Shown here: in pieces, positions 3,047-54,797 of the stretch
Numbering within the stretch: position 1 is the stretch's first letter
How the letters are laid out: every line of letters starts with the position of its first letter
NCBI GenBank assembly: GCA_963846525.1
Contig: CAWJWE010000001.1
Span: forward strand, 164,192 to 228,191
Direction of reading: 5' to 3'
Origin: an uncultured Actinomycetota bacterium
Lineage (GTDB): Bacteria; Actinomycetota; Actinomycetes; JACCUZ01
Length of the DNA: 64,000 bases
Notes under the pieces: generated by a model
What the model saw: only the letters and a program-made list of their open reading frames with translations
Database searches by the model: none
What the model was told of the DNA's origin: nothing
Position numbers and translations under genes: made by a program

Positions 3047-3120
<74 letters not shown>

Positions 3121-9499: not shown

Positions 9500-9658
9500 C
9501 GCCCGGCGTGCTGCCTCCCATCCGGACTTTCACCGTCGGTCCCGGAGTTCCACCGGGTCAACCGGCCGGGTCGTAGCCATGGCTGGTGCGTCCCGGACGC
9601 GGGTCGCGGACTGTCACCGCCGGTTCGGAATCTCACCGACCCCGGAGCACGCTGTGCG
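9500..9658 (-). promoter_or_regulatory. FMN riboswitch (RFN element) upstream of ribD
   Basis: The minus strand reads CTCCGGGGTCGGTGAGATTCCGAACCGGCGGTGACAGTCCGCGACCCG...GGTTGACCCGGTGGAACTCCGGGACCGACGGTGAAAGTCCGGATGGGAGGC. This matches the conserved RFN core blocks. Confidence 0.85.
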
Positions 9659-38283: not shown

Positions 38284-38783
38284 GGTCCGGCCCAGCGCAC
38301 GATCTCGTCGGCGACCTCGTCGGGAGTCCGGCCGTCGGTCAGCACGGTCACCGAGGCGACCTCCTCGTAGAGCGGGCGGCGGGCCGCCATCAGCCTGATC
38401 CACTGCGCCCGCGGGTTGCCGATCAGCAGCGGCCGGTCCCGGTTCAGCCCGATCCGCCGGGCGGCGTCCTTGATGCCGACGTCGAGGAAGACGACCGGTC
38501 GGCCGGCCAGCAGACCGCGGGTCCCCGGGTCGAGGACCGCGCCGCCGCCGACCGCGAGCACCCCGTCGTGCTCGGCGAGGGCGGTCGCCACCGCGGCCCG
38601 CTCGAGGTCCCGGAAGTGCTCCTCGCCGTGCTCGACGAAGAGGTCCGCGATGCTGCTGCCCGTCGTGACCTCGACGTCGTCGTCGGTGTCGCGGGACGCC
38701 ACCCCGAGCCGGTCGGCCACGGCCCGGGCGGCCGTCGACTTGCCCGACCCGGGCGGTCCCACCAGCACGACGACCGGCGCCAC
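38280..38783 (-). CDS. aroK: Shikimate kinase
   Basis: Intact 167-aa ORF with a GTG start. [23 protein letters not shown]...RDTD matches AroK. Confidence 0.95.
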
Positions 38784-39966
38784 TCAGGTCACCTGCAGGT
38801 GGGCCGAGGTAGGCCGCGGCGTTGCGCGCGGTCTCGGTCACCGAGTCGCCGCCGAACTTCTCCAGCACGACGTCGGCCAGCACCAGCGCCACCATCGCCT
38901 CGGCCACGATGCCGGCCGCGGGCACCGCGCACACGTCGCTGCGCTGGCTGATCGCCCGGGCCGGCTCGCCGGTGGCGACATCGACGGTGTCGAGGGCCCG
39001 GGGACGGTCGAGATCGGTTTCATGGCAGCCCGGACGCGCAGCGGCTCGCCGGTGGTCATGCCGCCCTCGACCCCGCCGGCCCGGGCGGTGCGCCGGTGCA
39101 GCCCGCCGTCGGCACCGCGCTCGATCTCGTCGTGGGCCTGCGAGCCACGACGCGCCGCGCTGTCGAAGCCGTCGCCCAGGGCGACGCCCTTGATCGCCTG
39201 GATGCCCATCAGCGCACCGGCCAGCCGGGAGTCCAGCCGCCGGTCCCAGTGGACGTGGCTGCCCAGCCCCGGCGGGAGTCCGTAGGCGAGGACCTCGACG
39301 ACGCCGCCGAGGGTGTCGCCGTCCTTCTGCGCCGCGTCGATCTCGGCCACCATGGCCGCGCTCGCGGCCGGGTCGAGGCAGCGGACCGGGTCGGCGTCCA
39401 GCCGCTCGACGTCGTCCGGCTCGGGCCACGACGCCGTCGGGGGCGGTCGCGCCGCCGATGGCGACGACGTGGGAGACCAGCCGGGCGCCGACGGCCTGGG
39501 CGAGGAACGCCTGGGCCACTGCGCCGAGCGCGACCCGGGCCGCCGTCTCGCGGGCGCTCGCCCGCTCGAGCACCGGACGGGCGTCGTCGAACCCGTACTT
39601 CTGCATGCCGGCGAGGTCCGCGTGGCCCGGTCGCGGTCGGGTCAGCGGGGCGTTGCGGGCGAGGCCGGCCAGGGTCTCGGCCGGCACCGGGTCGGCGCTC
39701 ATGACCTGCTGCCACTTCGGCCACTCGGTGTTGCCGATCCGGATGGCGACCGGGCCACCCTGGGTGAGCCCGTGCCGCACGCCGCCGAGCAGCTCGACGT
39801 CGTCCCGCTCGAAGGTCATCCGCGCGCCGCGGCCGTGGCCGAGCCGACGCCGCGCGAGCGCGTCGGCGAGGTCGTCGGTCGTGACCGCGACCCCGGCGGG
39901 CAGCCCTTCCAGGGTGGCGAGCAGGGCAGGGCCGTGCGACTCCCCCGCGGTCAGCCAGCGCAGCAT
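38784..39966 (-). CDS. aroC: Chorismate synthase (several frameshifts)
   Basis: The gene starts [25 protein letters not shown]...[12 protein letters not shown]. Later pieces read [30 protein letters not shown] and [26 protein letters not shown]. The stop at 38784-38786 is reached after removing one base near 38803. Confidence 0.9.
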
Positions 39967-40048
39967 GCGCCGAATCCTCGCAGACGGGGCCGGACGCACC
40001 GGTGGCCTGCCCGGAGTCCGGGCAGGCCACCAGTCGTGCGACCGAGGA

Positions 40049-40716
40049 TCAGGCGATGGTGAGTCGCTTGTTCCCCAGGACGTTGAACCGCTCCTCGCCG
40101 TACTGGAAGGAGTTGCTGGCGCCACTGATCGAGACGCACCTTGAAGAAGCTGGCGAAGACCTCGCCGGCCCGCAGGTTGGCGTACCGCTTGCCGTCCACC
40201 TTGACGGTGATCGTGCTGTTGTCCGGGGCGACGCTCGACGACGCGGAACGAGTGCGGCGAGGTCGCGGCCGGGCGTGCGCGTCGCCGCCGGTGGTGCCTG
40301 CGCGTCGGTGCCGCCGGCGACGTGCCGCCGGTCGGTCGACGGCGAGGCCGTGACCGGGGTCGCCACGGCGACCGGGCGCTGCCACGACGCCGGCGCCTCG
40401 ACGATGAGCGCCTTGAACGGGTCACGCCCGAACGACTTGGCGTTCAGCCGCTGCTGGGGTGCAGTCGCCGGGGGCCTCGACGGCGTCGCTCGGTGCTGCC
40501 GGCGACCACCGGGGTCGAGCGCGGCTGTCGGCCGCGGGCTCCGCGTCGCCGCCGGCGAAGAACAGGAAGTACGCCAGGATCGCCAGCAGCACGACGCCGG
40601 CGACGCCACCGAGCAGGAGCAGCCGGGACCTGTCCGATGACGGCGGGCTCGTCTCGAGTGCCGGACTCGGGTGGCGGCGCGGTGGCACTGTCGAAGGGAA
40701 CGCTCGACTCACTCAT
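40049..40716 (-). CDS. Pilus-locus membrane protein of unknown family, in the PilP position (several frameshifts)
   Basis: Pieces from three frames give MSESSVPFDSATAPPPES..., a TM segment (LLLLGGVAGVVLLAILAYFLFF), a Pro/Ala-rich linker, FGRDPFKALIV and TITVKVDGKRYANLRAGEVFASFFK...NSFQYGEERFNVLGNKRLTIA. It sits directly downstream of pilO. Confidence 0.45.
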
Positions 40717-40725
40717 GCGTGACTC

Positions 40726-41464
40726 CTACTGGCCGGTGGTCGTCGCCGGAGCGGCGATCGCCGTGGTGGTCGGGGCGGCTGCTGCCGGCTGGCTGAGGAA
40801 CACCCGGCCGGTCAGGGCGATCGTGAGGTTGTCCGGCCGTGGTCCTTCCGCGGCGGCCGTGCGTCCGGCGCCGAGCGTGAAGCCACTGACCAGGAACGAG
40901 CGCCGGAAGTTCTCGACCTTGTTGAGGAACTGCTCGAGCTCGAAGTAGCGTCCCGGTCACGTTCACCGTGAGCGGCACCTGGTACAGCGTCCGCGACGGG
41001 CGGCCGGCGCAGCCGGGGTCGTCGTCGCGGCCGCGTCGGTGCCGGTGCGGCGTCGGTGCCCGCTGCGGCGTCGGTGCCCTCGGCGGGCGGCGCCACCGGA
41101 GCGCGACCAGACCGGGTGCGACCAGTGCCACCGGGACCGCCGGGGACATCGAGTCGATGCTCACCCCGGTCTTGCGGCCGGCGGCCGTGAGGTCACGGAT
41201 CAGGGACGGCAGGGCCGGGTTGTCCGGGATCTGGCGGCGCAGGGTGGCCAGCCGGGCTCGCTGCCGGGGCAGGTCCTCCTGCTGTGCCTTGAGGACCTGG
41301 ATCTGCTGCTCCAGACGGGCGTTCGCGTCCGCCCGGCTGACCGCTTTGCCCTTGAGCTCGGCGGCCTCGCTGCGCTTCGGCGAGATCAGCAGGAACCAGC
41401 TGGCCGCGAAGATCGCGGCCACGAGGACGACGGCAAGCGCCGACCACTTTCGGGTGTCGGTCAT
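40726..41464 (-). CDS. pilO: Type IV pilus assembly protein PilO-like (at least 1 frameshift near 40950)
   Basis: It has an N-terminal TM segment and a coiled coil (AELKGKAVSRADANARLEQQIQVLKAQQEDLPRQRARLATLRRQIPDNPALPSLIRDL). The C-terminus TLYQVPLTVNVTG then RYFELEQFLNKVENFRRSFLVSGFTLG is recovered after a shift. Confidence 0.7.
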
Positions 41465-41465
41465 G

Positions 41466-42156
41466 TCAGCTGCCCGCCTTGTCGGTGTAGCGGCCGGAGA
41501 GCAGGTCCTCGGTGACGACGACCTGGCTGTCGAAGGTCACCGAGTCCTCGGTGCCGATCTGCTCCTGAGCCGACTTGGTGAAGTAGGGGTCGGCCAGACC
41601 CGGTCGCCCGGTCAGCGACTTGAGCCAGGCAGCCACGTCGTTGTGCGTGTAGCCCTTGCCCTGGAACGTCACGGTCCCGATGCCGGCCGTGCCGTAGCCG
41701 GTGGCGGCGCCGGCCACCGGCGCGGCAGCGACGGCGCGCGTCGACCTGCTCGGTCGCGGTCGATCTGGGTCAGCCAGACCTTGCCGGGCGTGTTCAGGCT
41801 GAGGTCGTTGAGGAAGTACGACCAGCGGATCTCCTTGGCCATGGCCTGGCTGAGCTCCGCCTCGCCGGCGTCCACGGCGGCGTAGACCGCCGGGACCTCG
41901 TCGTACTTGGCGGCCTCGGCCTGCAGCGCCGTCTGCCGGGCCTGCTCGGTGTCGAGCTGGTCCTGGGCGTCGGACGACCTGGCCGTTGGCGGCGAGCAGC
42001 AGGACGGCCGACGACGCCGAGCGCCGCGAGGACTCCGGCGCCCAGGCCGGTCTGCACCTTCTTGAAGCGCCGCTGCTCCTCGATCTCGGGCGGCAGCAGG
42101 TTCACCCGCGGAAGGGTGACCAGCCCGGTGCCCCGACCAGTGGTCAAGGTGCTCAT
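41466..42156 (-). CDS. pilN: Type IV pilus assembly protein PilN-like (at least 2 frameshifts)
   Basis: LPRVNLLPPEIEEQRRFKKVQTGLGAGVLAALGVVG shows the PilN N-terminal motif plus a TM segment. The periplasmic part reads IRWSYFLNDLSLNTPGKVWLTQI and GTVTFQGKGYTHNDVAAWLKSL. Its ATG overlaps the pilM stop. Confidence 0.7.
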
Positions 42157-43272
42157 GATGCGACTCCCAGGGCCAGGCCGACCGGCACTGCGGCCAGCGG
42201 CTCGACGAACGCGATCTGCTCGGGCGACAGGCCGGTGCGGCCCACCTGCAGGCTGTGCATGGGGGTGCCGATCTGCACCGGCACCCGGGTCGTCACCTGG
42301 AGGCGCTGGGCGAGACCGCCGAGGCGTGCTCCCCCACCGGTGAGGACGAGACGCGAGATCGGCGCGGAGCCGCTCGACGCGAGGTAGTAGTCCAGCGAGC
42401 CGCGGACCTCGTCGACGAAGGCCGCTCCGACGGCCTCCACGACGCGGACGGCCGCCTGGACGTCCATCCCGTCGCCGGCGGTGCCGAGGGCCGAGCTGCT
42501 GCTTCATCGCCTCGGCCTGCTCCTGGGGGACACCCATCCGCTCGGCGACCGCGTCGGTGACGTCCTGGCCGCCCATGAGCAGGATGCGCACGAAGCGCGG
42601 GACCCCGCCCTGGTGGACCACGATGTTGGTGACCCGGGCACCCACGTCCACGAGCGCCTCGACCTCGGCACCCATGCCGAGGTGGTCGGCGTCGGCAAGC
42701 GAGCGGATGACCGCGAACGAGGTGAGGTCGACCATGACCGGGGAGAGCCCGGCCTTCTGGACCGCCTCGAGGCTGGCGTTGACCATGTCCCGGGAGGCCG
42801 CGACGAGCAGACCGCGCAGGATGCGGCTGCCGCCGTCGCCGGTGAGCTCCTCGAGCGGGTGGAAGTCGAGCACCGCCTGCTCCACGGGCATCGGCACGAA
42901 GTCCTGGACCTGGTAGGCGAGCGACGCCTTCAGCTCGTCGGCCGGCATCCAGGGCAGGTCGACCTGGCGCACGATGACCTTCTGGTTCGCGACGCCGATG
43001 ACGACCTTCTTGCTGCTGAACTTCGTGTGGGCCCAGAGCTGCTTGATGGCGGCGGCGACGGTGTCGGGGTCGACGACCTCGCCGTCCCGGACGGCACCTT
43101 CGGGAAGGGCCACCTGGCCGAACTTCTCGAGTGTGACCTGGTCCTTGCCGAACGAGAGCTCGGCGGCGCGCACGCCCGAGGTCCCGATGTCGAGACCGAT
43201 GGCGGATCGAACTGCCACGACGCTTCCCCTCCCAGAGGCGGCTTCTGCCGCGTGGTGACCCTTGTGGGTCAT
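42153..43272 (-). CDS. pilM: Type IV pilus assembly ATPase-fold protein PilM (one frameshift near 42480)
   Basis: IGLDIGTSGVRAAELSF...VVIGVANQKVIVRQVDLPWMPADELKASLAYQVQDFVPM...ALVDVGARVTNIVVHQGG then LVLTGGGARLGGLAQRL indicates an actin-like fold of PilM type. Confidence 0.85.
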
Positions 43273-43320
43273 GTCAAGAGAGGGGATCGGCCGGTTCCGG
43301 GCCGGGCTTGAGCCTTCGGC

Positions 43321-44120
43321 TCAGCCGAGAACGTTGTCGAGGTAAAGGTCTGCCAAAGCACCGCCCCACAGGATCGAGACGAGGGCGCCGGCCAGCATGT
43401 ACGGGCCGAACGGGATGCTCGACTTGCGCCCGGCCCGCCGGACCGCCATCAACAGCAGGCCCACCACACCGCCGAAGAGGAATCCCAGGAACGCGCCGAC
43501 GACCAGCTCGCCCCAGCCCAGCCAGCCGAGGTAGATCCCCAGCACGCCGGCCAGCTTGACGTCGCCGAAGCCCATCCCCGCGGGGTAGATCGAGCGCGAG
43601 CACGAAGTAGAAGCCGTACAGCGCCGCCATTCCGACGGCCGGCCCGCAGCAGGTCGTGCCGCACGGCCGTCCACCAGGGCCGCCGCGCCGAGCAGCACGC
43701 CGGCGACGAGGTAGGACGGCAGCACGAGGACGTTCGGCAGCCGCTTGAGGTCGATGTCGATCATCGCCAGGGCGACGCCGACCGCTCCCAGGTAGAGGAA
43801 GGCCGGCAGGTCGGGCTGCCAGCCCGATGCGCAGCGCGAGGACCGCGAAGACACCGCCGGTGCGCCAGCTCGACGAGGGGGTACCGGGCGAGATCGGCTC
43901 GCCGCAGTCGCGGCAGCGGCCACGCAGGAGCAGCCAGCTGAGCGACCGGCACGTTGTCCCGGGGCCGGACCGGCTGCTCGCATCCCGGGCAGTGCGACGG
44001 CGGGCGGACGACCGACTCGCCGCGCGGGACCCGCCAGATGACGACGTTGAGGAAGGACCCGACCAGCAGGCCGAGCACGAAGCTCGCTCCCGCGAGCGAC
44101 GCAGCGGCCACAGTCGTCAT
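43321..44120 (-). CDS. pilD: Prepilin peptidase PilD, A24 family (at least 2 frameshifts)
   Basis: The N-terminus reads LLVGSFLNVVIWRVPRGESVVRPPSHCPGCEQPVRPRDNVPV. The peptidase core reads ALAMIDIDLKRLPN...GMGFGDVKLAGVLGIYLGW...IPFGPYMLAGALV. Confidence 0.85.
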
Positions 44121-44190
44121 GTCCTTAATATCGTCACCACGTCTAAGGCCTGAAGGCTAATGGCGGCGGACGTGGGTCGAGCAGGGCCCG

Positions 44191-45504
44191 TCAGCGGTCG
44201 ACCTGGCGGTAGTCCGAGACCCGGAAGTCGTTCAGCAACGGGAAGTTGTCCGCCCAGCAGGCGTCCAGACGGATCTCGGCCGTGCCGTTGAACTTGTCGA
44301 GGTTCTTCGCGAAGACCGTGCCGGTGAACTTCGAGTTGCCGTTTCCGCGCAGCGTCCCGTCCGGCACGAACAGCGCCCCGACGACGTCCGCCCCCGCATT
44401 GATGCGAGCGTCGCCGCCTTCGATGATCACCACGATGGACCTCGTTCCGCAGGTCGCACTCGAGTAGCCCGTGATGGAGTTGAGGTTGACCTCGACGCCC
44501 GGGGCCACCTTGAAGTAGAGCACCGTGTTGGGGTAGTTCGCCGGGTTCGGCGACGTGTAGCTCGCCGTCGTGTAGTAGTTCCCCTGGCTCTTCGCCAACG
44601 CCTTCAACGCGGCGTACTGCTGCGGCTGGAGCCCTCGCGCGGTGAGTCCGAACGAGTCCTGCAGGTCCGTCAGCGTAAACTTCGTCGTCGTGAGGTTGTA
44701 GCAGGATCCAGGGGTCGCCTGGGGACCGCCGTAGGGAGTGGACACCGGGTACTCGGTGTTGCCGAAGCCGTAGCACTTGTTGACGTTGTTCAGGACATCG
44801 TTCGAGGCCGAGCACGCGCCGTTGCTCGAGGTCACGCCACCCGTGGTCTTGATGGAGGCCAAGCCGCCGTACCAGATGTCGTTGCCGGTGACCCCGGTGT
44901 GCTTCACGCCGCTGATGCAGCCGCTGGAGAAGATGGTCTCGTTGGTCACGTCCGCAGTACCGACAGCGACGACGCTGTCGGCGTAGACCCCGACCGGGTA
45001 GGTGAACGGCCGCGCTACGACTGTGGCTTCCACCGCTCGTACTCCGGCGGTGGAGACGCTGGTCGTGCCCTTCGACCTGATCCGGTAGACCGACTCGCGC
45101 GTGGTGGGCGGGGCCGCCTTGGCGACCCGCGAGATCCACACTGCGTACTGCTGCCCCCCCGCGCTCACCGTCTGGGCGTTCGCCGGCCCGTTCCACGCAC
45201 CGGTGCAGGCCGTGGCGCTCGTCCACGTGGTCCCGTTGAACGTGAGACCGGACTCGGGGCAGTTGATGCCACTGGCACCGCTGCGCAGGAACTCGATCCC
45301 GGCCGCGACGCCGGCGTCCGCGACGTCCAGCGCGATCGCGCCCTGCCGGTCGCGGTCCGCGTTCTGGCTGTTGGCGACCGCCATGACGGTGGCAGTGATG
45401 CCCAGACCGGACATCGTCGCCACCACCAGCATGACCACGACGATGGCGTTGCCGGCGTCCGCCGAAGCGGCGCGGACACGACGGATCAGGTGAGCGCTCA
45501 TCAT
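44191..45504 (-). CDS. PilX_N-like pilus assembly protein, 438 aa, Cys-rich
   Basis: Intact ORF. The N-terminus GNAIVVVMLVVATMSGLGITATVMAVANSQNADRDRQGAIALDVADAGVAAGIEFL resembles the PilX N-terminal domain, with no G/F cleavage motif. Ten Cys residues are spread through the rest. Its start overlaps the upstream stop (ATGA). Confidence 0.6.
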   Translation of the reverse strand: MMSAHLIRRVRAASADAGNAIVVVMLVVATMSGLGITATVMAVANSQNADRDRQGAIALDVADAGVAAGIEFLRSGASGINCPESGLTFNGTTWTSATACTGAWNGPANAQTVSAGGQQYAVWISRVAKAAPPTTRESVYRIRSKGTTSVSTAGVRAVEATVVARPFTYPVGVYADSVVAVGTADVTNETIFSSGCISGVKHTGVTGNDIWYGGLASIKTTGGVTSSNGACSASNDVLNNVNKCYGFGNTEYPVSTPYGGPQATPGSCYNLTTTKFTLTDLQDSFGLTARGLQPQQYAALKALAKSQGNYYTTASYTSPNPANYPNTVLYFKVAPGVEVNLNSITGYSSATCGTRSIVVIIEGGDARINAGADVVGALFVPDGTLRGNGNSKFTGTVFAKNLDKFNGTAEIRLDACWADNFPLLNDFRVSDYRQVDR

Positions 45505-46175
45505 GCCTTGTTCCTCATGTTGACTTGGGTCTCGTAGACCTGACGGCGGGCGCCGGTCAGGACCGTGAGCGAGATGGTCGCTCCGTTGATGTTGCGCAGC
45601 TCGATGGTGTCGAGCACACCATTCTGGTTGCCCACGCCGGCGGATAGCGGTGCGCAGTCGAGCTCCTGCCAGGTCACGACACCGTCCGGCGTCGGACTGG
45701 CGGCGCAGGCACCGTCGTACTGCCAGAGGTTGGACCGGGGCTGGATTGTGAGGCTCTGGACGTCGGAGGAGAGGATGGGCAGCGCGGCCGGGTTGTCGCA
45801 GGGGAACCCGCCTCCGACATCCGCCGTGAGGAGCAGCCTGCGGCCTGCTGTGTCCCAGCAGTAGGTCAGACGCTCGGGGTCGGCCGCGCTGGAGTCGATG
45901 CTGCCGTTGCCGTTGAAGTCGACCGTGAACGTCATCCCGGTGATCTGACCGCCCGTGATCTTGACCTCTTCGATCTCCGAGGCCTGACGCAGCTCGCGAG
46001 TGATCCGGTTCAGCGCGAGACGCGCCTGCTCGTTGAGGTCGTTGGTCTGGCGGGTGGTCTCGACGCTGCTGCTCGAGGTGGCGACGACCGTGGCGATCGC
46101 CGCGAGGATCACGAAGAACATCATCGACGCCACCAGAAGCTCGACCATGGTGAAACCTGAGTCGTCGCGCTTCAT
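45501..46175 (-). CDS. Minor pilin with prepilin-type N-terminal cleavage/methylation domain (PilW-like)
   Basis: Intact ORF. MKRDDSG/FTMVELLVASMMFFVILAAIATVV shows G-1, F+1 and E+5. It has ATGA overlaps on both sides. Confidence 0.7.
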   Translation of the reverse strand: MKRDDSGFTMVELLVASMMFFVILAAIATVVATSSSSVETTRQTNDLNEQARLALNRITRELRQASEIEEVKITGGQITGMTFTVDFNGNGSIDSSAADPERLTYCWDTAGRRLLLTADVGGGFPCDNPAALPILSSDVQSLTIQPRSNLWQYDGACAASPTPDGVVTWQELDCAPLSAGVGNQNGVLDTIELRNINGATISLTVLTGARRQVYETQVNMRNKA

Positions 46176-47932
46176 CGGTTGTCCTCTGCGTAGCAGGACA
46201 TCGGCGCGACCTGGACGGAGATGGCCGAGCCGGGGTCGCCCACCCGAGTAGGAACGGTGTTGAGCGTGATGATGCCGTCAGTAGTTCCGCGAGCGACGTT
46301 TCCTCCCGCACCGGTCAGGATGTCCAGGGTCGTGAGCGCCGTCCAGCTGGGGATGTACTCGCTCAGCCAATGGTCGGTCCCCGCCACGTTCGCGACCTTG
46401 ATGGTCGCCGGGTCGGGCAGTGCGCTGCCACCGTTCTGGACGGTGCCGACCAGCTGGTAGCTGCCGCTCTTCCAGGCGTAGACGTCGGCCTTGAAGGTTG
46501 CCGTCGCCGAGGGCGTCGTCCCGTCGGTGCTGCACTTCAGGACTGCTCCGTAGACCTGGATCTGGACGACCCCGCGCCCTGACGGTGTGAAGGTCGTCGG
46601 CATGACGTCGATGACCGATCCCGCCGCATGCGTCGACGGACACATTGCGCCAGCGGACCCGCAGGAGCCGGCCCAGGCGTTGACGGCGTGGGTCAGGCCG
46701 GACGTCTGCGTCGTCCACAGGCCGCCGAAGGCGGTGCCGTCCGCACTGCCTCCGGACGACGTGACCCCCAGCTGCTCCTTGGGCCGCAGCGTGACGAGAG
46801 GGACGTTGTTCTGAAGCATCAGGTCGATGCGGTCCGGCAGGTTCGCGAACCGGAACGCTGGTCGCCCTGCTCCCCCTGCGCCGTTCACGGAGGCGAAGAT
46901 GGGGTTGCCCGTCCCATCTGCGGCGTAGCCGACGAGCGGCAGTGCGCGGTCGACCTTGAGGGATCCCCCGGTCACGACGGTCTTGCCGAAGCAGACCGTG
47001 TTGCAACCAGTGCCCTGAAGGTCGCCACCGCTGGTGTCCGTCACGGTGGGGACGGTCTGGGACGGGGGCGCGTTGCCCGAGCTTCGGGCTCCTTGGACAT
47101 TGATGCCCGGGGTCATCGCCACCGAGGCTCCGAGCGCGTCGACCGAGGAGGTGATGCCGGCAGCCGCCGAACCGTCTGCGTTGACGCTGGCAAGGTCCGC
47201 CGTGACCTGGACGCCGCCGGGCAGGGTGCTGGCCACCTTGAGCAGCTCGGCTCGCGCCTGGCCATTCACCAGTGGCTTGGTCGGCTGCGCCTGGTCGATC
47301 CGGGTGTACGTCTTGTGCGACCGGACCTTGCCGTACCGCGTCCACACGACCTGGACGGTGACCGCCATGACGGTGCTCGGGACCTCGTCCAGACCCGCCG
47401 TGTTCTGGTAGGCGTAGCCGGCCTGGGGGGCCACCGCAGCACCGGCGCCGGTGAGGAACTGGGCGACGACGAGAATCCGATAGGTCGAGCCCTCGCCCGG
47501 GAGAGTGCGGCTGCGAACGGTTCGGTAGAAGTCGCCGGCCGGGTCCCCGGGGGCGCGACCGGCGACCGCCGCCGCCGACACGTAGCCCGTGCTGACGTTG
47601 GCGATCGTCGTCCCGGTCGCCACCGGCGTCAGGGACGGAAAGTAGTTGTCGACGAGGTCGACCTTCGCAGCCGGCGCCGCCGCACCGGTGGCGTCGCGCT
47701 GGTTGGAGGCATCCACGTGGAACGGGAGCTGGCGCATGCCCTCCACCTGGTCTTGCGCCAGGTTCCGGGCCTGGGTCGCGGTCTTGGCGAAGACCGACGC
47801 CTTGGTCATGCTCAGGAACATCGGGATCAGCGCCATCACGGCGATGCTGAAGATCATCATCGCGATGAGCAGCTCGACGAGGGTGAAGCCCTCGTCTCCC
47901 TCACGACGACCAGCGAGCTTGTTCATCAGCAT
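46172..47932 (-). CDS. Giant minor pilin (586 aa) with PilV-like N-terminus
   Basis: Intact ORF. MLMNKLAGRREGDEG/FTLVELLIAMMIFSIAVMALIPMF...ARNLAQDQVEGMRQLPF is followed by about 500 aa of Gly/Thr/Ser/Ala-rich sequence that matches no family I recognise. Confidence 0.7.
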   Translation of the reverse strand: MLMNKLAGRREGDEGFTLVELLIAMMIFSIAVMALIPMFLSMTKASVFAKTATQARNLAQDQVEGMRQLPFHVDASNQRDATGAAAPAAKVDLVDNYFPSLTPVATGTTIANVSTGYVSAAAVAGRAPGDPAGDFYRTVRSRTLPGEGSTYRILVVAQFLTGAGAAVAPQAGYAYQNTAGLDEVPSTVMAVTVQVVWTRYGKVRSHKTYTRIDQAQPTKPLVNGQARAELLKVASTLPGGVQVTADLASVNADGSAAAGITSSVDALGASVAMTPGINVQGARSSGNAPPSQTVPTVTDTSGGDLQGTGCNTVCFGKTVVTGGSLKVDRALPLVGYAADGTGNPIFASVNGAGGAGRPAFRFANLPDRIDLMLQNNVPLVTLRPKEQLGVTSSGGSADGTAFGGLWTTQTSGLTHAVNAWAGSCGSAGAMCPSTHAAGSVIDVMPTTFTPSGRGVVQIQVYGAVLKCSTDGTTPSATATFKADVYAWKSGSYQLVGTVQNGGSALPDPATIKVANVAGTDHWLSEYIPSWTALTTLDILTGAGGNVARGTTDGIITLNTVPTRVGDPGSAISVQVAPMSCYAEDNR

Positions 47933-48426
47933 CAGCGCAGTCCGTTCACGGAGACGCGAGAGGTGAGCCCCTCGACCTTGACGGTGTAGACCTTGGATGA
48001 CGACAGCCGGGTCACCTTGACGGATCCCGCCGTGGCCGTGCCACGTGGCGTGAACTGGGCGTTCGCCGTGGTGCTGCCGTCGGCCTGGAGGAAGCTCGGT
48101 GAGGCCAGGAGGACGCCGGGATTCGCGGTCACGCCCTTCGAGACGAGCAGCCCTGTCGAGCAGGTCGAGCGGTAGACCTTCCAGGCGCGTGCCGCGACGT
48201 CGAAGGTCACGCAGTAGTTGATGCCTTCGGCCTGTGCCCGGGACTGCGCGTTGCGCAGCACTTCCTCGATCTGCACCGCAGTACCGCGCTCGTCCTGAGC
48301 GTTCCGGTACCTGCTGAACCCGCCGACGGACACCGCGACGAGGATCGAGAAGATCACCATGGTGACCGACAGCTCGATCAGCGTGAAGCCTCGGTCGCCG
48401 CCACGTCGGTGCAGTCTCTCCTTCAT
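47932..48426 (-). CDS. Minor pilin, FimT/GspH-like
   Basis: MKERLHRRGGDRG/FTLIELSVTMVIFSILVAVSVGGFSRYRNAQDERGTAVQIEEVLRNAQSRA. The ATG at 48426 overlaps the upstream pilin stop. Confidence 0.65.
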   Translation of the reverse strand: MKERLHRRGGDRGFTLIELSVTMVIFSILVAVSVGGFSRYRNAQDERGTAVQIEEVLRNAQSRAQAEGINYCVTFDVAARAWKVYRSTCSTGLLVSKGVTANPGVLLASPSFLQADGSTTANAQFTPRGTATAGSVKVTRLSSSKVYTVKVEGLTSRVSVNGLR

Positions 48427-48872
48427 CAGCAGGTCCCGGTGTCGAGCCCGTTGGCAGCGGTGAACTTGTAGTCCTTCTGGCGACCCTTCGGGTCGGTGAG
48501 AGAGACGCACCACAGGGTCTCGCTGTTCAGGTTCGACGACGCGCCACTGGCCGGGCGTGCGGTGCCGTTCGTGAGATTGATGGTGGACGCATAGCCGTTC
48601 GCATCGGCGAGCACCACGCTGCCCGGCACGCTGACGAAGTCCAGGGTGAGCGTCGAGTTGCCGTCGACGAAGTAGGTGGCGACCTCTTTGGCGAGGTGCG
48701 ACACGTCTGCCTTGGTGGACGCGTCGTGGGCGTTTGCCCGCTGGCTGAGGAAGGCCGGGATCGCGATGGATGTCAGGATGCCGATGATGATCATGACCAC
48801 GAGGAGCTCGACTAGAGTGAAGCCCTGCTCGGAGGAGTTCCGCGCGGGCGACCTTGTCGACCTGGAGCTCAC
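48426..48872 (-). CDS. pilA: Type IV pilin, second paralog
   Basis: Intact 148-aa ORF. MSSRSTRSPARNSSEQG/FTLVELLVVMIIIGILTSIAIPAFLSQ is followed by a C-terminal Cys pair (LWCVSL...DTGTC). Confidence 0.85.
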   Translation of the reverse strand: MSSRSTRSPARNSSEQGFTLVELLVVMIIIGILTSIAIPAFLSQRANAHDASTKADVSHLAKEVATYFVDGNSTLTLDFVSVPGSVVLADANGYASTINLTNGTARPASGASSNLNSETLWCVSLTDPKGRQKDYKFTAANGLDTGTC

Positions 48873-49033
48873 GTCAGACCCCCTTCTTCGCTCGTGATGG
48901 CGGCGTTGAGCCGCGGCTTCACCACTCTGATCGACTCCACGTCATGAATTCTTGAGTCCTGGCGTTCGGCCGGTTGAGGCAATGTGCAGCGCTTGGCCGA
49001 CGCACGAGCTTCCGTCAAGCGGGCAGATGAGTG

Positions 49034-49069
49034 GGGGTGTGCGGAAGTCGCGTGATCTCCGCACACCCC
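49034..49069 (-). terminator. Second strong hairpin between the two pilin genes
   Basis: GGGGTGTGCGGA - 12-nt loop - TCCGCACACCCC forms a perfect 12-bp stem. No clear U-tract follows. Confidence 0.45.
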
Positions 49070-49082
49070 GGTCGGACAATGA

Positions 49083-49113
49083 CTCTGGGCGGCCCCATCG
49101 GGGCCGCCCAGAG
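49083..49113 (-). terminator. Hairpin terminator/attenuator directly after the major pilin gene
   Basis: CTCTGGGCGGCCCC-ATC-GGGGCCGCCCAGAG forms a perfect 14-bp GC-rich stem. It starts 18 nt downstream of the pilA stop (49131-49133). Confidence 0.6.
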
Positions 49114-49130
49114 CTACTCGGAGATCAGGA

Positions 49131-49571
49131 TCACGGGCAGGCGCCGGTCTCCAAACCGCCGGCGGCGGAGTACTTGTAGGTCTTCTGCTTGCCGTCGGCG
49201 TTGGTGAAGCCGATGCACCAGAGGGTGTCGCTGTTCAGGTTGGTGGCGGTCACCTGGTCGGTGCCCTTGCTGACCTTGATGTCGGCGAAAGGAACGCCGG
49301 CGTCGGAGAGGACGACGTTGTCGCCAGGAGGAGCCTGGGCGACGGTGACGTTCGGCACGGCGGCCGGCTCGACGAAGTAGGTCGCGAGCTCCTTGCCGAC
49401 GGTGGACACGTCGGCCTTGGTGGAGGAGTCCCGGGCCTTCTCACGCTGGGAGAGGAACACCGGGATGGCGATGGCGGCGAGGATGCCGATGATGATCATG
49501 ACGACGAGGAGCTCGATCAGGGTGAAGCCCTGGTCCTTCTCCTCCGCCGCCTTGCGGATGCGAGCGAGCAT
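49131..49571 (-). CDS. pilA: Type IV major pilin candidate
   Basis: Intact 146-aa ORF. MLARIRKAAEEKDQG/FTLIELLVVMIIIGILAAIAIPVFLSQ is followed by a C-terminal Cys pair (LWCIGF...ETGACP). It has a strong SD (AAGGACGGAG), its own leader and its own terminator. Confidence 0.9.
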   Translation of the reverse strand: MLARIRKAAEEKDQGFTLIELLVVMIIIGILAAIAIPVFLSQREKARDSSTKADVSTVGKELATYFVEPAAVPNVTVAQAPPGDNVVLSDAGVPFADIKVSKGTDQVTATNLNSDTLWCIGFTNADGKQKTYKYSAAGGLETGACP

Positions 49572-49643
49572 GTGATGCTCCGTCCTTTCAGGACCGATCC
49601 CGATGAGCCGCGCCGCCGGTCCCTCGCGGCACCCTTGTGGGTG

Positions 49644-49736
49644 CCGGCCGAGGCAGCTGGGCTGACCGCGATCTCTGTCACGCGGTTCCCTGGCTTTGCG
49701 ACCCCGTCTCGCGACGGGTGTGCCGTTTCTGGCCGG
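49644..49736 (-). promoter_or_regulatory. Candidate riboswitch-like aptamer (GEMM-I-like motif) in the pilA leader
   Basis: On the minus strand a closing helix CCGGCC/GGCCGG encloses two hairpins. The first is CCCGUC-GCGA-GACGGG and the second is ACCGCG..CGCGGU (extended by GGG/CCC). They are linked by GUCGCAAAGCC. This is only a partial match to the c-di-GMP-I core as I recall it. Confidence 0.35.
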
Positions 49737-49840
49737 TGTGGCTCGATGACATAGAGGTTTTCGGTGCCGTGACGGACCGCGCTTGAGCCGTTGCCGAGGA
49801 CAATTTCCGCGACCACCCGATGGGGCTAGGCCGAACGGCG

Positions 49841-49873
49841 GACGGGCCGGACGCCGAACGGGTCCGGCCCGTC
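49841..49873 (-). terminator. Hairpin terminator after pilC
   Basis: GACGGGCCGGAC - 9-nt loop - GTCCGGCCCGTC forms a perfect 12-bp stem about 20 nt downstream of the inferred pilC stop. Confidence 0.55.
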
Positions 49874-49892
49874 CGACGTGGCCAGCGGTCGG

Positions 49893-51125
49893 CTACTCTG
49901 ATCAGGTCGAAGACCTTGAAGATCGGCATGTACAGCGCGATGATCATCGACCCGATGATGCGCGCCGAGGAAGGCGATCATCAGCGGCTCGATCAGCGCG
50001 GTGAGCGCCTCGGTGGTCGCCTCGACCTCCTGGTCGTAGAACTCGGCGATCTTGTGCCAGCATCGTGTCCAGGGCGCCGGTGTCCTCGCCGACGGCCATC
50101 ATCTGCACCACCATCGGCGGGAAGACCGGGTGCTTCGCCAGCGGCTCGGCGAGCGACTCGCCGCTGCGGACGCTCTCCTGGACGTCGCGTGATGGCGCGC
50201 TCGAGGACGACGTTGCCGGTGGTGTCCGCGACGATGTCGAGCGCCTGCAGGATCGGGACGCCGGACTTCATCATGGTGCCGAGGTTGCGGGCTGAACCGG
50301 CTGAGCGCGATCTTCTGGAACAGCTGGCCGAAGACCGGCAGCTTGAGCTTGAGCGGGTCGAGCGACGTTGCGCACCTGGTCGCGTGTGCTTGACCTTGCG
50401 GCCAGGTGACCATGAAGCGCGATGAAGCCCACCACAGCCGATCGGCGCCAGCGACCTTCATCGCCTCGCTGAGGAACACCAGGACCCGGGTCGGCGCCGG
50501 CAGCGTCGCCGCCGAGGTCGTCGAACATGCCGGCGAAGACCGGGACGATGAAGAGCAGCATGCCGATGACGGCGAGGATGGCGATGACGAACACGACGAC
50601 CGGGTAGGTCATCGCCGACTTGACCTTGCCGCGCAGCTTGACCTCGGCCTCGTAGTTCGTCCGCGATCTGCAGCAGCACCGCGTCGAGGAAGCCGCCGAC
50701 CTCGCCGGCCCGGATCATGTTGACCATCAGCGGCGGGAAGACGTCCGGGTGCTTGGCCATGCGCCTGCGAGAGCGCGCTGCCGGTCTCGACGTCGTTGCG
50801 CGACCTCGCCGAGGACCCGGGCGAGCTCCTTGTTCTCGGTCTGCTCGGCCAGGATCGTCAGCGCGCGCAGCAGCGACAGGCCGGAGTTGATCATCGTCGG
50901 CGAACTGCCGCGACATGACCGCGAGGTCCTTGAGCTTGACCTTCTTGCCGAAGCCCGGGATGTTGATCTCCTTGCTTCATCCCGGCCTTGTGCTCGCTGA
51001 TGCTGACAGCGGCGCGTAGCCCATCTGTCTTGAGCTTGCTGCGCCACCGCGGCCTGGGAGTCCGCCTCCAGCGTGCCGGTGACGATCTTCCCGGTCTGGT
51101 CCCGGACCGAGTACTCGTAGGTCAT
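49893..51125 (-). CDS. pilC: Type IV pilus platform protein PilC (many frameshifts; 3' end approximate)
   Basis: The gene starts MTYEYSVRDQTGKIVTGTLEADSQAAVAQ. Two T2SSF repeats appear across frames (MINSGLSLLRALTILAEQTENKELARVLGEV and MMKSGVPILQALDIVADTTGNVVLERAI). The final helix reads MIIALYMPIFKVFDLI. Confidence 0.85.
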
Positions 51126-51149
51126 GCGTCGCTGCCATCGGATTGCCTC

Positions 51150-52737
51150 TCAGCCTCGGCCGGCGAGCCGGTTGAAGTCCTCGACGTGGTGGCACTTCTC
51201 GAGGCCGACCTCGTAGGTGATCTTGCCCTTCATCACCAGGTCGGCGAGGTGCTGGTCCATGGTGTGCATGCCGTGCTTCGCGCCGGCCTGCATGGCCGAG
51301 TAGATCTGGTGGGTCTTGCCCTCGCGGATCAGGTTGCGGATGGCCGGCGTGGCGACCAGCACCTCGGTCGCGACGGCCCGGCCCGTGCCCGTCGCGCGGT
51401 CTTGGCCAGGGTCTGGCAGACGACGCCCTGCAGCGAGCCGGCCAGCTGGACGCGGACCTGCTGCTGCTGGTTGGGCGGGAAGACGTCGATGATGCGGTCG
51501 ATCGTCTGCGCGGCGTCCTGGGTGTGCAGGGTGGCGAAGACGAGGTGGCCGGTCTCGGCGGCGGTCAGCGCCACCGAGATGGTCTCCAGGTCGCGCATCT
51601 CGCCGACCAGGATGATGTCGGGGTCCTGGCGCAGCACGTGCTTGAGCGCGTTCTGGAAGGACTAGGTGTCCTCCCCCACCTCGCGCTGGTTGACGATGCA
51701 CTTCTGGTGCCGGTGCAGGAACTCGATCGGGTCCTCGACGGTCATGATGTGCTCGCTGCGCGGTCCGGTTGGCCAGGTCGATCAGCGACGCGAGCGTCGT
51801 CGACTTGCCGGAGCCGGTCGGGCCGGTGACGAGGACGAAGCCGCGCGGCAGCGACGCGAAGTTCGGCCACCGACGGCGGCACGCCGAGGTCCTCGAGCTT
51901 GCTTGATCTCGAACGGGATGATGCGGAAGGCCGCGCCGAGCGCGTCGCGCTGGCGGTAGATGTTGACGCGGAACCGGGCCCGGCCCGGGACGCTGTAGGC
52001 GAAGTCGAGCTCGAGGTTCTCCTCGAACTTCTCCCGCTGCTTCTGGGTGAGGGCGGCGTAGAGCACCCGCTGGATGACCGGCGGGGTGAGGATCGGCTGG
52101 TCCTCCAGCTGCTTCAGCTCGCCGTTGAGCGGATCGCGGGCCGGGCGCCCGACGTCAGGTGCAGGTCGGAGGCGCCGCGTGTCGAGCACGTGCATCAGCA
52201 GGTCGTTGAGGCTGATGTCGTTCTCGTCGCCCTCGGCCTCGGTCGAGCCGCGCTGGTAGGCCGACTCCTCGGCCTCCGACTCGGCGACCAGCACCGAGGC
52301 TGCCGTCGCGAGACGCTCACGACGTCGCCCGCGAACGCGGCCGGGGCCGGCGGCGAGCGGTGCTCGTCGACGGGGCGACCTGCTCGCGGCAGCGTAGGCG
52401 GTGGGCGCCTGCGGGCAGCGCGGCTGGCGCCGCGAGCTCGGGCGCCGGCGTCGTACGACACCGGCTGCTCGAGCGCGGCGGCCGGCGGCTGGTACGGCAG
52501 GGCTCCAGCGAGGCCACCGGCCGGCGGGAGCGGGCTCGGCGACCGGGGCCGCTCGGCAGGACCGGGGCGATCGGCGCGGACAGCTCGTCGGCCTCCGCGG
52601 CACCGGGCTCGGCCGACGTAGGAGTAGGTCCACCCGGCGCCCGGGCTCGTCGGCCTCGGCCTCGGGCGCGTCGGCACGGGCACGGCCGCGAAGCCTCCCG
52701 GCTCGTTCGGCACCGGCTGGTATCCGGACGTCTCCAC
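51150..52737 (-). CDS. pilT: Twitching-motility retraction ATPase PilT with Pro/Ala-rich N-terminal region (frameshifts plus an in-frame TAG; start uncertain)
   Basis: The core fragments read [12 protein letters not shown]...[72 protein letters not shown], then [29 protein letters not shown]. An in-frame TAG (51662-51664) follows, then [47 protein letters not shown] and [14 protein letters not shown]. Confidence 0.85.
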
Positions 52738-52850
52738 CTGCTGACCCCTCTCGCTACGGCGGCCCGCGGACCGCGGCACACCTGTCTCGCGAGAGGATCG
52801 GCCGATCGGGCCCTGGCCTTGAGCCGTCGGTGGCCGACCTTGCCAGGTCT

Positions 52851-54534
52851 TTAGACGACGACGCGGAGGATCTCCTCGAGCGAGGTGACGCCCGCGAGCA
52901 CCTTGTCCAGCCCGTCGTCGCGCAGCGTCCTCATGCCCTCGTTCGCGTGGCCACCTGCTCGATCACCGTCGGCGGAGGCGCTGCTCGACGGCGAGCCGCT
53001 CGATCTCCTCGGTGACCGCCATGACCTCGTGCAGCGCCAGCCGGCCCTTGTAGCCGGTCTTGGCGCACGCCGAGCAGCCGACCGGCCGGAACAGCTCGGG
53101 CAGCGGCTCGCCGTCGTGCCACGGGAACCGGGACGCCACCAGGAGCTCCGCGGGTCGGGCGTGTACGCCTCCTTGCACTTCGCGCACAGCCGGCGGGCGA
53201 GCCGCTGGGCGAGCACCGCGTCCAGCGCCGACCCGACGAGGAACGGCTCGATGCCCATCTCGGTCAGCCGGGTGATCGGCCGACGGCGCGTCGTTGGTGT
53301 GCAGGGTCGACAGCACGAGGTGGCCGGTGAGGGCGGCCTCGACGGCGATCTGCGCCGGTCTCGTGGTCGCGGATCTCACCGATCAGCACGATGTCGGGGT
53401 CGGACCGCAGGATCGAGCGCAGCGCCGAGGCGAACGTCAGGCCGGCCTTGGTGTTGGTCTGCACCTGGTTGATGCCGGGCAGCCGGTACTCGACCGGGTC
53501 CTCGACCGTGATGACGTTGACCTCGGGCCTGCTGACGATGTTCAGCGTGGCGTACAGCGTCGTCGACTTGCCGGACCCGGTCGGCCCGGTGACCAGGATC
53601 ATCCCGTACGGCTTGGTGAAGCTCTCGCGAGTAGCGCTCGTAGTTGCTGCTCGGAGAAGCCGAGGTCGGTCGAGGTCCAGCTGCGCCGTGGAGTTGTCCA
53701 GGATTCGCATGACGACCTTCTCGCCCCACACCGTCGGCAGGGTCGCGACGCGCAGGTCGATCTTGCTTGCCCGTGGGCGTTGACCGACAGGCGGCCGTCC
53801 TGCGGGATGCGGCGCTCGGCGATGTTGATGTCGGCCATGATCTTCAGCCGGCTGATGACGCCGGACTGGATCGCCTTCGGCGAGCGCATGACCTCGTGCA
53901 GCACGCCGTCGATGCGGAAGCGCACCCGCAGGTCGTGCTCGGTCGGCTCGAGGTGGATGTCCGACGCGCGGTCCTGGATCGCCTGCGTGATCAGCAGGTT
54001 GACGTACTTGACGATCGGCGCGTCCTCGACGATCTCCTTGACCTTGGAGAGGTCGTCCTCCTCCTCCTGCGCGTCGAGGACGCTGGTGAGGTCGTCGATG
54101 TCGGAGTCGGCGCGGTAGTAGCGGTCGATCGCGGCGGCGACGTCGGCCCGGGTGGCGACGACCGGCTTGACGTCCATGCCGGTGAGCGACGCGGATGTCG
54201 TCGATCGCGAAGACGTTGGCCGGGTCGGCCATCGCGACCAGCAGCTTGCCGTCCTCGAAGCCGATCGGCATGCGCCGAGTGGCGGCGGCACGACCGGCGC
54301 CGGGGACCCGGCCGACGGCGGAGCCGTCGACCGGCGAAGTCGGAGAGGTCGACGAACCGCAGGCCGATCTGGGTGGCGAGCGCGGCGACCAGCTGGGACT
54401 CGGTGAGCACGCCCTGCTCGATCAGCACGCGCCCGAGGGCCCGGCCGACCCGCTGCTGCTCGTCGTAGGCGGCCTGCGAGCTGGGTCGGGCTGACCAGCC
54501 CGCCCTCCAGCAGGATGTCGCCGAGCTGCTTCAC
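52851..54534 (-). CDS. pilB: Type IV pilus assembly (extension) ATPase PilB (many frameshifts)
   Basis: The N-terminus reads [19 protein letters not shown]. ATPase-core fragments include [12 protein letters not shown], the Walker A site [48 protein letters not shown] and [15 protein letters not shown] Cys cluster reads CAKCKE...[12 protein letters not shown], and the C-terminus reads [26 protein letters not shown]. Confidence 0.9.
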
Positions 54535-54797
54535 GCGCCGTCCCTTCCCGTGTACGAGATGTCCTCCCTGACCATCGGGTCAGGCAGGTGCGTTCCTGAA
54601 GCAGTCGCGCGACGGCTCACCAGTGAGCGAGCAGTGCGGCGATCTGGCCCATCGAGCGGGCCAGCGCCGAGTCCGGCGGTACGGCGACCACCTGGCCTCC
54701 GTGCGAGCACCAGCGTCACGCTGACCGGCGGGTCGGGACGGCGGCGACGCCCGCCCGTCAGACCGGTCGCGCAGGCCCCACATCGGCCACGGCCACC

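Follow-up and report, generated by a model that had tools for sequence, protein, structure and literature searches.

We analysed a 64,000-nucleotide stretch of DNA from an uncultured Actinomycetota bacterium (assembly GCA_963846525.1, contig CAWJWE010000001.1, positions 164,192 to 228,191), referred to below as the window, with a focus on the messenger RNA leader of pilA1, a gene for a major type IVa pilin that is read from the minus strand. A first-pass annotation, made from the letters alone, had described this leader as a structured RNA of about 270 nt with a core resembling GEMM-I (genes of the environment, membranes and motility), the class-I riboswitch for c-di-GMP (cyclic dimeric guanosine monophosphate). 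Every structural element that it had listed was recovered in place on the minus strand, among them the hairpin (G)GCACCC-ACAA-GGGUGC(C) at 49645-49628. The features of the locus are collected in Table 1. As judged from its sequence, the element in the leader is almost certainly a genuine c-di-GMP-I aptamer.

Table 1 Features of the pilA1 region of the window, listed from the upstream end.
Feature	Position	Strand	Basis
GC-rich hairpin of about 17 bp, possible U-less terminator between pilC and pilA1	49841..49873	(-)	sequence, pairing
Promoter-like boxes CTCAAG (49787-49782) and ACCGAAAA (49765-49758)	49757..49787	(-)	conservation, consensus likeness
Conserved 5' leader block GUCAUCGAGCCAC	49738..49750	(-)	conservation
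P0 5' strand GAGCCAC	49744-49738	(-)	RNAalifold
c-di-GMP-I (GEMM-I) aptamer including P1	49644..49736	(-)	RF01051, R1, covariation
P1 closing helix CCGGCC(AG)/(CU-C-)GGCCGG	49736-49729 with 49652-49644	(-)	sequence
First hairpin, 2+6 bp, GCGA cap	49723-49698	(-)	RF01051 alignment
CCCGUC-GCGA-GACGGG	49718-49703	(-)	sequence
Linker GUCGCAAAGCC between the hairpins	49702-49692	(-)	sequence
AAA linker	49697-49695	(-)	RF01051 alignment
P3 hairpin, first pair formed by the third A of the AAA linker	49695-49655	(-)	RF01051 alignment
Second hairpin GGG-A-ACCGCG...CGCGGU-CAG-CCC	49690-49659	(-)	sequence
Hairpin c (CGGCACCC-ACAA-GGGUGCCG)	49626..49645	(-)	sequence; hairpin kept in relatives
Stem e (CCGC 49629-49626 with GCGG 49616-49613)	49613..49629	(-)	RNAalifold, covariation
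Shine-Dalgarno (SD) mimic d, GGGACCG, in the stem-e loop	49623-49617	(-)	pairing across leaders
P0 3' strand GCGGCUC	49605..49611	(-)	RNAalifold
Anti-SD d', CGGUCCU	49596-49590	(-)	pairing across leaders
SD region GAAAGGAC-GGAG	49589-49578	(-)	sequence
SD-proximal AGGAC	49586-49582	(-)	sequence
SD hairpin GUCCU:AGGAC, GAA(A) loop	49578..49596	(-)	predicted in relatives
pilA1, major type IVa pilin, 146 amino acids, MLARIRK...GFTLIELL	49131..49571	(-)	Pfam N_methyl E=1e-9; orthologues
Two strong hairpins 3' of the pilA1 stop (about 49113-49083 and 49069-49034)	49034..49113	(-)	predicted pairing

When the whole window was compared with the 4227 families of Rfam 15 at the curated thresholds, three matches resulted. 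One was to RF01051 (c-di-GMP-I) at 49734-49649 of the minus strand; it scored 51.5 bits, where the gathering score is 35, with E=3.8e-7 for the full 64 kb. The alignment covered the full model (positions 1-87 of 87), and our own covariance model R1, built from 15 aptamers, scored the window aptamer at 105.9 bits. The GEMM-I identity suggested in the first-pass annotation is therefore borne out, including the canonical ligand and tertiary-contact residues. By covariance-model alignment the equivalents of G20, A47 and C92 of the Vc2 RNA are G49724, the unpaired G ahead of a G-C pair, A49697, the first A of the linker, and C49653, the C on the 3' side of P3, so that the counterpart of G20, previously called ambiguous, is settled as G49724. 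C49700 in the GUC internal loop and G49662 in the CAG bulge occupy the model positions of Vc2 C44-G83, an equivalence of position only, and both residues are conserved in the 15-sequence alignment A1. G20, A47 and C92 are ligand contacts, and C44-G83 is the universally conserved interhelical tertiary pair of the class.

The first hairpin, reading GC/ACA/CCCGUC-GCGA-GACGGG/GUC/GC, has stems of 2 and 6 bp, 3-nt internal loops and a GNRA cap; the GEMM description gives the same composition for the first hairpin and lets an AAA linker join the two. Two types are distinguished in the original GEMM description, one with a GAAA loop and an 11-nt receptor, the other with a GYRA loop that almost never occurs with the receptor. 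Since the tetraloop of the window RNA is GCGA (GYRA) and the 11-nt tetraloop-receptor positions of RF01051 are deleted, it belongs to the second, receptor-less type. The missing GGGGUUACC block, which had been counted against a GEMM-I identity, loses its force, as this block is absent from the RF01051 consensus; we take it to be specific to the V. cholerae Vc2 sequence. Position 20 is a G in every copy of alignment A1 and the AAA linker is invariant there; at locus L004 the linker reads ACA instead of AAA.

Compensatory changes of the kind anticipated for orthologous pilin leaders were indeed present. In A1 the GEMM-I structure pairs 87.6% of the alignment cells, compared with 25-44% in slid controls, and nine pairs carry compensatory changes; none of 500 shuffles attained the observed value. 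The first hairpin is paired in 100% of the cells and contains one GC-to-AU compensatory change. In A4, an alignment fitted to the model and comprising 109 metagenomic aptamers among the matches listed, 89.2% of the cells are paired (31-44% in slid controls), with 18 compensatory pairs. P1 is invariant in the pilin clade, and all eight of its pairs covary among the 109 copies of the model-fitted A4; for P3, compensatory changes affect six pairs in A1 and eight in A4. The aptamers are 87-98 nt long and their lengths differ by non-multiples of three, indicating a non-coding region.

A scan of the genome collection with a pilin query yielded 80 actinobacterial loci, and R1 found the aptamer in the window and in 16 of these with 67-106 bits (named loci: L001, L004, L013, L020, L022, L025, L027, L033, L034, L039, L052, L056, L059, L067, L079). 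It lies 64-86 nt 5' of the ATG of open reading frames (ORFs) for MLARIRK-type pilins, always on the pilin strand, and precedes such pilins on at least seven metagenomic contigs as well. The positive genome loci all come from uncultured metagenome-assembled genomes (MAGs) labelled Frankiaceae, Frankiales, Mycobacteriales, Motilibacteraceae or unclassified Actinomycetota, the closest relative being L052, a Microflora-Danica-style MAG. The placement in the Nocardioidaceae that had been suggested gives way to one among Frankiales/Mycobacteriales-type MAGs, which are the nearest relatives. Rfam thresholds are passed by 21 copies spread over 20 loci, five of them metagenomic pilin loci and the other 15 drawn from the 16 genome loci, and 19 related copies score 40.8-55.2 bits with RF01051; L004 has 68 bits with R1 yet no Rfam match. 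Among 17 sampled riboswitch-negative pilin loci (Cellulomonas, Demequina, Kineococcus, Kineosporia, Angustibacter, Actinotalea and others) there were no Rfam matches, which makes the riboswitch a clade-specific addition to a widespread pilin gene. At two loci tandem pilin genes each have their own complete promoter-riboswitch-leader unit (L027, 3030-3126 and 3829-3923; L033, 3832-3929 and 4617-4714).

Contrary to the rarity implied earlier, the aptamer type itself is widespread among environmental bacteria of high GC, and routine Rfam annotation can detect it. A metagenome scan with the subclass pattern found it on at least 120 high-GC contigs (GC 0.43-0.76, mostly 0.6-0.76), mostly before non-pilin genes: among the 126 matches listed, seven precede MLARIRK pilins and 103 other ORFs, and 16 were unscorable. 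The other genes among the matches listed include those of secreted subtilases (L091, L126, L128, L132), some behind tandem aptamers, of glycoside hydrolases (L086, L146), of a camelysin-like protein (L095), of a DUF3344 protein (L147), and of a recurrent secreted protein of about 215 amino acids that starts with MPYIIRP and has no Pfam match. Tandem aptamers 96-134 nt apart were seen, again among the matches listed, at L128, L133, L140 and L177.

The sequence taken previously as a leader of 270 nt contains a conserved promoter-like box pair, which would place the transcription start at about 49752 and leave a leader of probably about 180 nt. In all 19 leaders CTCAAG (variants CTTAAG and GTAAAG) is followed at a fixed distance, about 16 nt on, by (G/C)CCGA and about 12 nt further by GUCAnCGAGC. 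The consensus of actinobacterial WhiG, of the sigma-28 family, is T(A/C)AA-N16-GCCGATAA for WhiG2 and CTCA-N16-17-GCCGAACT for WhiG1, with a -10 element GCCGA in which CGA is invariant, and in Rubrobacter, Actinoplanes, Cellulomonadaceae and others the expression of type IV pilus genes from WhiG-type sigma factors has been either demonstrated or predicted (PMC12871210, PMC8325347). By its similarity to this consensus the pilA1 promoter would be sigma-28/WhiG-like. The window box, TCAA-N17-ACCGA (equivalent to CTCA-N18), has a spacer longer by 1 nt and an A for G at the first -10 base. Of 19 pilin genes that bear the riboswitch, 9 conform strictly to the WhiG consensus, with the boxes 200-220 nt upstream of the ATG. 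The strict form also occurs at 24 of the 91 other pilin-like genes, where its distance from the ATG spans 35-137 nt and, for most of the major pilins, is about 90-115 nt. A consensus scan of 49000-50100 gave no sigma-70 promoter. Between the post-pilC hairpin and the promoter box the window has a conserved motif, CUAGCCCCAUCGGGUGG (49813-49829, minus strand), also present in several relatives, and the second pilin gene (48872-48426) has its own CTCAAG-N16-GTCGA box near 48956 and no riboswitch.

RNAalifold, run on 17 full leaders, paired unprompted the 5' sequence GAGCCRC with GYGGCUC about 45 nt past the aptamer. This helix, termed P0, is paired in 95% of the cells and shows covariation at two of its pairs (CG/UA/UG and GC/AU/CG). 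The leaders of riboswitch-free relatives (L012, L032, L054 and L003; Kineococcus L019/L023/L028; Kineosporia L071/L072/L074) open with the same GUCAUCGAGCCGC and a short stem-loop, GAGCCGC...GCGGCUC, so that the aptamer, hairpin c and the next segment appear to be a stretch of about 100 nt inserted in the loop of an existing stem-loop. Together, P0, P1, hairpin c and the 4-bp stem e are predicted to meet in a four-way junction whose linkers measure 1/0/0/1 nt. Pairing of the rare-codon start ATGCTCGCTCGC with the 5' GAGC was considered as a riboswitch-specific switch part and rejected, since relatives that lack the riboswitch share this start.

Downstream of the aptamer, several helices compete for the same strands. 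The lower 3 bp of hairpin c, which varies in sequence among relatives and keeps its hairpin form, engage the final 3 nt of the 3' strand of P1. CCUCG (49653-49649) can further pair with CGAGG (49626-49622), giving a 13-bp extended hairpin CCUCG-GC-CGGCACCC/GGGUGCCG-CGAGG of -23.3 kcal/mol that excludes P1 and consumes the 5' strand of stem e together with the first two G of d. Stem e, paired in 86% of the cells with two covarying pairs, is CGGGC:GUCCG in L039 and L056 with the layout kept. The pairing of d with d' is possible in 90% of the cells and that of d' with the SD arm in 88%; masking of the SD by GUCC/GGAC (49594-49591 with 49585-49582), as foreseen in the first-pass annotation, is hence a conserved trait. 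The segments d, d' and the SD-proximal AGGAC are limited to riboswitch-bearing leaders, GGUCC and GGGACC being absent from riboswitch-free ones, and of 25 pilin leaders that carry the riboswitch, 22 are predicted to form the SD hairpin. At L167, d, d' and SD are altered together to GGGAU, AUCCC and GGGA, and at L103 d' is GGUUC, which forms wobble pairs with both partners.

The nearest-neighbour model sets the P1-closed and P1-open states about 1.5 kcal/mol apart and gives the d:d' duplex -13.1 kcal/mol compared with -5.7 kcal/mol for the SD hairpin. In local modelling a free d paired with d' and the SD was open, and with CCGCGAGG masked the SD was closed; this held for 10 of 17 leaders, those of the window's clade among them. 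The arrangement CCGC-GA-GGGACCG-GCGG...CGGUCCU would have the loop lengths of a classical H-type pseudoknot (L1 = GA, L2 = 0). A terminator-type platform was rejected, as the competing hairpin has no U-tract, and the consensus scan of 49000-50100 found no terminator-like site; according to a review, Actinomycetota favour translational riboswitch platforms. A pilin leader at L049 (about 760-894) has a platform-like GUCCUGGAGGAC and an upstream CCAGGAC with no detectable aptamer, which may reflect aptamer loss.

In the mechanism that we propose, the pilA1 mRNA would begin at about 49752 at the sigma-28/WhiG-like promoter and carry a canonical class-I c-di-GMP riboswitch, in which closure of P1 would bring P0, P1, hairpin c and stem e together in a tight four-way junction. 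Bound c-di-GMP would lock P1, release CCGCGAGG and allow stem e to form and present GGGACCG, the SD mimic, which would pair with the anti-SD CGGUCCU as an H-type pseudoknot, leaving the SD (GAAAGGAC) free and the pilin translated. Without ligand, the P1 3' strand would enter the 13-bp extended hairpin with CCG-CGAGG and the mimic would be disabled; the anti-SD would then pair with the SD, keeping translation low. We assign this explanation as a whole, a class-I c-di-GMP riboswitch working as a translational switch and probably ON, a probability of about 60%. Regulation of pilA1 in cis is very probable, and action at translation initiation is slightly favoured. For the direction, taken by itself, we see even odds of ON and OFF, on account of the folding results, the duplex energies, the clade without d, the SD-occlusion comparison and the repression known from Rubrobacter, to which we now turn.

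Several results weigh against the proposed switch. Across 17 leaders, SD accessibility in whole-leader RNAfold did not shift consistently between folds that enforced the aptamer and folds that forbade P1. The d:d' duplex energies do not exceed those of shuffled GC-rich controls (z -1.8 to +2.0), and the anti-P1 extension, possible in 89% of the cells, is likewise not above shuffles. A second clade (L034, L141, L183, L199, L004) keeps the SD hairpin and lacks a clear d. Default occlusion gave a mixed picture in a comparison of 22 riboswitch-positive with 55 negative leaders that is uncorrected for phylogeny: the SD core of riboswitch-bearing leaders is more open than that of riboswitch-free ones, and only the AUG is more paired. 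In the window's clade the SD assignment is ambiguous between GAAAGGA and GGAG, and assembly indel errors leave single leader bases, such as the A-C mismatch in P0, not fully certain. Finally, c-di-GMP represses WhiG-driven pilus genes in Rubrobacter via RsiG (PMC12871210, PMC8325347), which better fits an OFF switch.

The same genuine riboswitch could thus work in the opposite sense, with the ligand compacting the junction, the SD mimic being held in the stem-e loop or made unavailable in another way, the anti-SD staying on the SD and pilin falling. The SD and AUG hairpins are still closed in the aptamer-enforced nested minimum-free-energy fold of the window leader, an OFF switch would be coherent with the known actinobacterial c-di-GMP input to WhiG-driven pilus genes, where RsiG sequesters WhiG, and GEMM-I OFF switches such as Cd1 are known. 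We nevertheless consider it unlikely. CGAGG, which adjoins the P1 3' strand, overlaps the SD mimic, so that opening of P1 removes an anti-sequestrator and not a sequestrator; moreover, the promoter fits the WhiG1-type CTCA at least as well as WhiG2, WhiG1 is reported not to be RsiG-regulated, and the other pilus-linked riboswitches for cyclic dinucleotides (CDNs) are ON switches. The C. difficile pilA1 riboswitch, too, is reportedly an ON switch. Alternatively, the riboswitch could act on the fate of the mRNA, either by stacking of ligand-stabilised P1 on P0, which would steady the 5' stem-loop and shield the mRNA from 5'-end-dependent decay, or by Rho-dependent or U-less termination at the extended hairpin. 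The strength of this 13-bp hairpin is compatible with such a role, as is the origin of P0 as an ancestral stem-loop at the extreme 5' end of riboswitch-free pilin mRNAs, in whose loop the aptamer sits. However, no U-tract follows the extended hairpin, P0 can form in both states, and the riboswitch-specific d, d' and SD hairpin point to the ribosome-binding site, which renders an effect on mRNA fate improbable.

As for the ligand, the aptamer might sense another CDN, 3'3'-cyclic GMP-AMP (3'3'-cGAMP) or a further one, or might belong to the c-di-GMP-I-GGC class (RF03167), which in a permissive scan scored 52.0 bits, marginally above RF01051 but below its own gathering score of 59. We take the name 'GGC' to mean G for A at the A47 position, in line with the RF03167 model consensus; no ligand is known for this variant class. 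That consensus is GACGCGAAGCC, whereas CGCAAAG stands in the window and in every pilin-linked copy other than L004 (CGCACAG), none having a G there; the variant identity was rejected on the score below 59 bits and on the A at the A47 position. Two copies, at L020 (3226-3301, 66.6 bits) and L025 (1445-1522, 61.5 bits), exceed the RF03167 threshold, which speaks for the variant class, though both have an A at the variant position. Their assignment looks like a scoring artefact and likely a misassignment in routine annotation, arising because both models share receptor-less, P1-containing features. In work of 2015 by Kellenberger and by Nelson, cGAMP-selective GEMM-Ib RNAs are said to carry an A at position 20; this position is G49724 in the window and G throughout the copies, and the GEMM-Ib identity was rejected on that basis. 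With G at position 20 and A at position 47, cGAMP or any other CDN is disfavoured, and we regard a ligand or class other than that of canonical c-di-GMP-I as very unlikely. Slightly less likely still is a decayed, non-functional relic, or a structured leader or protein-binding site with a chance likeness to GEMM-I. Most orthologous pilin genes lack the element, and a degraded copy that fails Rfam exists 5' of a pilin gene at L078 (3843-3934; 27 bits with R1, under the Rfam thresholds), where GGUAUUUCC stands for GGCACACCC and CGCGACGG for CGCAAAGC in the pocket, reflecting decay or altered specificity. Against a relic or chance likeness stand the full-length alignment of the window aptamer and its E-value, pocket residues that are invariant among diverged copies in which the helices vary by compensatory substitutions, and the fixed position before pilin genes.

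Tentatively, and with more doubt than belief, we suggest that the pilin level may be set by two stacked c-di-GMP inputs, a WhiG-type promoter that is possibly RsiG-controlled and a GEMM-I aptamer set in an ancestral hairpin with a pseudoknot anti-sequestrator. If this is true, the two inputs could give band-pass or feed-forward behaviour.

The window RNA shares with the RF01051/Vc2-type GEMM-I the 2+6-bp GNRA hairpin, the AAA linker, P3, P1, G20/A47/C92 and the interhelical C-G pair, as well as its place in the 5' untranslated region before an extracellular or motility gene. It differs from that family in the nesting of its aptamer in a pre-existing 5' stem-loop with a predicted four-way junction, in a modelled relay of SD, anti-SD and SD mimic with a possible pseudoknot, and in the absence of a terminator platform. 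We know of no GEMM-I description with an H-type-pseudoknot anti-sequestrator on a four-way-junction aptamer domain. A further difference is the host, here an uncultured Frankiales-like actinobacterium; Actinobacteria were not among the common hosts in the original GEMM description, whose founding gene table holds pilM, pilO, pilQ, pulF and cpaA. In Geobacter, the pilM GEMM-Ib RNA (3'3'-cGAMP, transcriptional ON) likewise places the GEMM-I fold before a type IV pilus gene, with the ligand favouring expression, but it uses cGAMP and a terminator and precedes the pilM assembly genes, whereas here we find G at position 20, no terminator, and the gene of the major pilin itself. The C. difficile pilA1 RNA Cdi2_4 also lets c-di-GMP act via leader RNA on the major type IV pilin of a monoderm; it has the unrelated class-II fold, works by transcription anti-termination and resides in a Firmicute, in contrast to the class-I RNA of an actinobacterium. 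With the system of WhiG/sigma-28 and RsiG the pilins share the c-di-GMP signal and CTCAAG-N16-17-(G/C)CCGA boxes resembling the WhiG consensus, from which the window box departs by a 1-nt spacer difference and one -10 base; that control is protein-based and transcriptional, whereas here it would involve the RNA leader.

The new points, within a well-known RNA family, are the association with this gene and clade and the nesting of the platform. Our knowledge of the riboswitch class itself is unchanged, and the novelty is modest, as GEMM-I was already tied to pilus genes and high-GC metagenomes hold the subclass in abundance. Hardly any work exists on the type IVa pili of Actinomycetota; a review of 2019 states that only Tfpc/Flp pili had been studied in this phylum. 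The RsiG-WhiG protein switch is the sole described c-di-GMP route to actinobacterial pilus genes (PMC12871210, PMC8325347). We found no riboswitch on actinobacterial pilin genes in the literature, with none mentioned in these two papers, and the supplement of a 2025 riboswitch census gives no per-phylum counts. A riboswitch on the major pilin mRNA would provide a simple RNA-level link from a second messenger to surface appendages in uncultured, Frankiales-like soil bacteria. It also offers a naturally occurring case of aptamer grafting into a 5' hairpin that already existed, and a compact translational GEMM-I platform of high GC with possible use as a sensor part.

On its 5' side pilA1 is preceded by genes for PilC (T2SSF), PilT-like fragments and PilB (T2SSE), and on its 3' side it is followed by a second pilin paralog (48872-48426), three minor pilins and, further downstream, PilM. 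The two strong hairpins after its stop make pilA1 likely monocistronic. Upstream, the hairpin that the first-pass annotation had read as a terminator after pilC is real, with about 17 bp, and surfaced in the permissive Rfam scan as a spurious miRNA match, but it has no U-tract and was not called a terminator by the scan for such sites. PilC of relatives ends in ...FDLIE* or ...FDLIK*, and the window has one extra base (CTGATCaGAGTAG); the true stop would therefore be the TAG at 49895-49893, 20 nt before the 49873-49841 hairpin. Single-base frameshifts occur throughout about 37900-54600 of the window, in pilC (about 49960 and 49899), pilB (about 54470 and 54300), pilT and the aroC region. Similar broken frames in L052 lead us to read them as assembly indels and not as pseudogenes, probably errors of a long-read assembly.

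A six-frame motif search by regular expression, of low sensitivity that the frameshifts lower further, found no GGDEF, EAL or HD-GYP in the window. The N-terminus of PilB (about 54534-54330, minus strand) contains two MshEN-like repeats with a weak Pfam MshEN match and the Arg of RLG displaced in both; from their sequence, they could represent a second c-di-GMP input at the extension ATPase. The Rfam scan further identified a flavin mononucleotide (FMN) riboswitch at 9504-9654 (minus strand, 85.3 bits) and a tRNA gene at 3047-3120 (minus strand).

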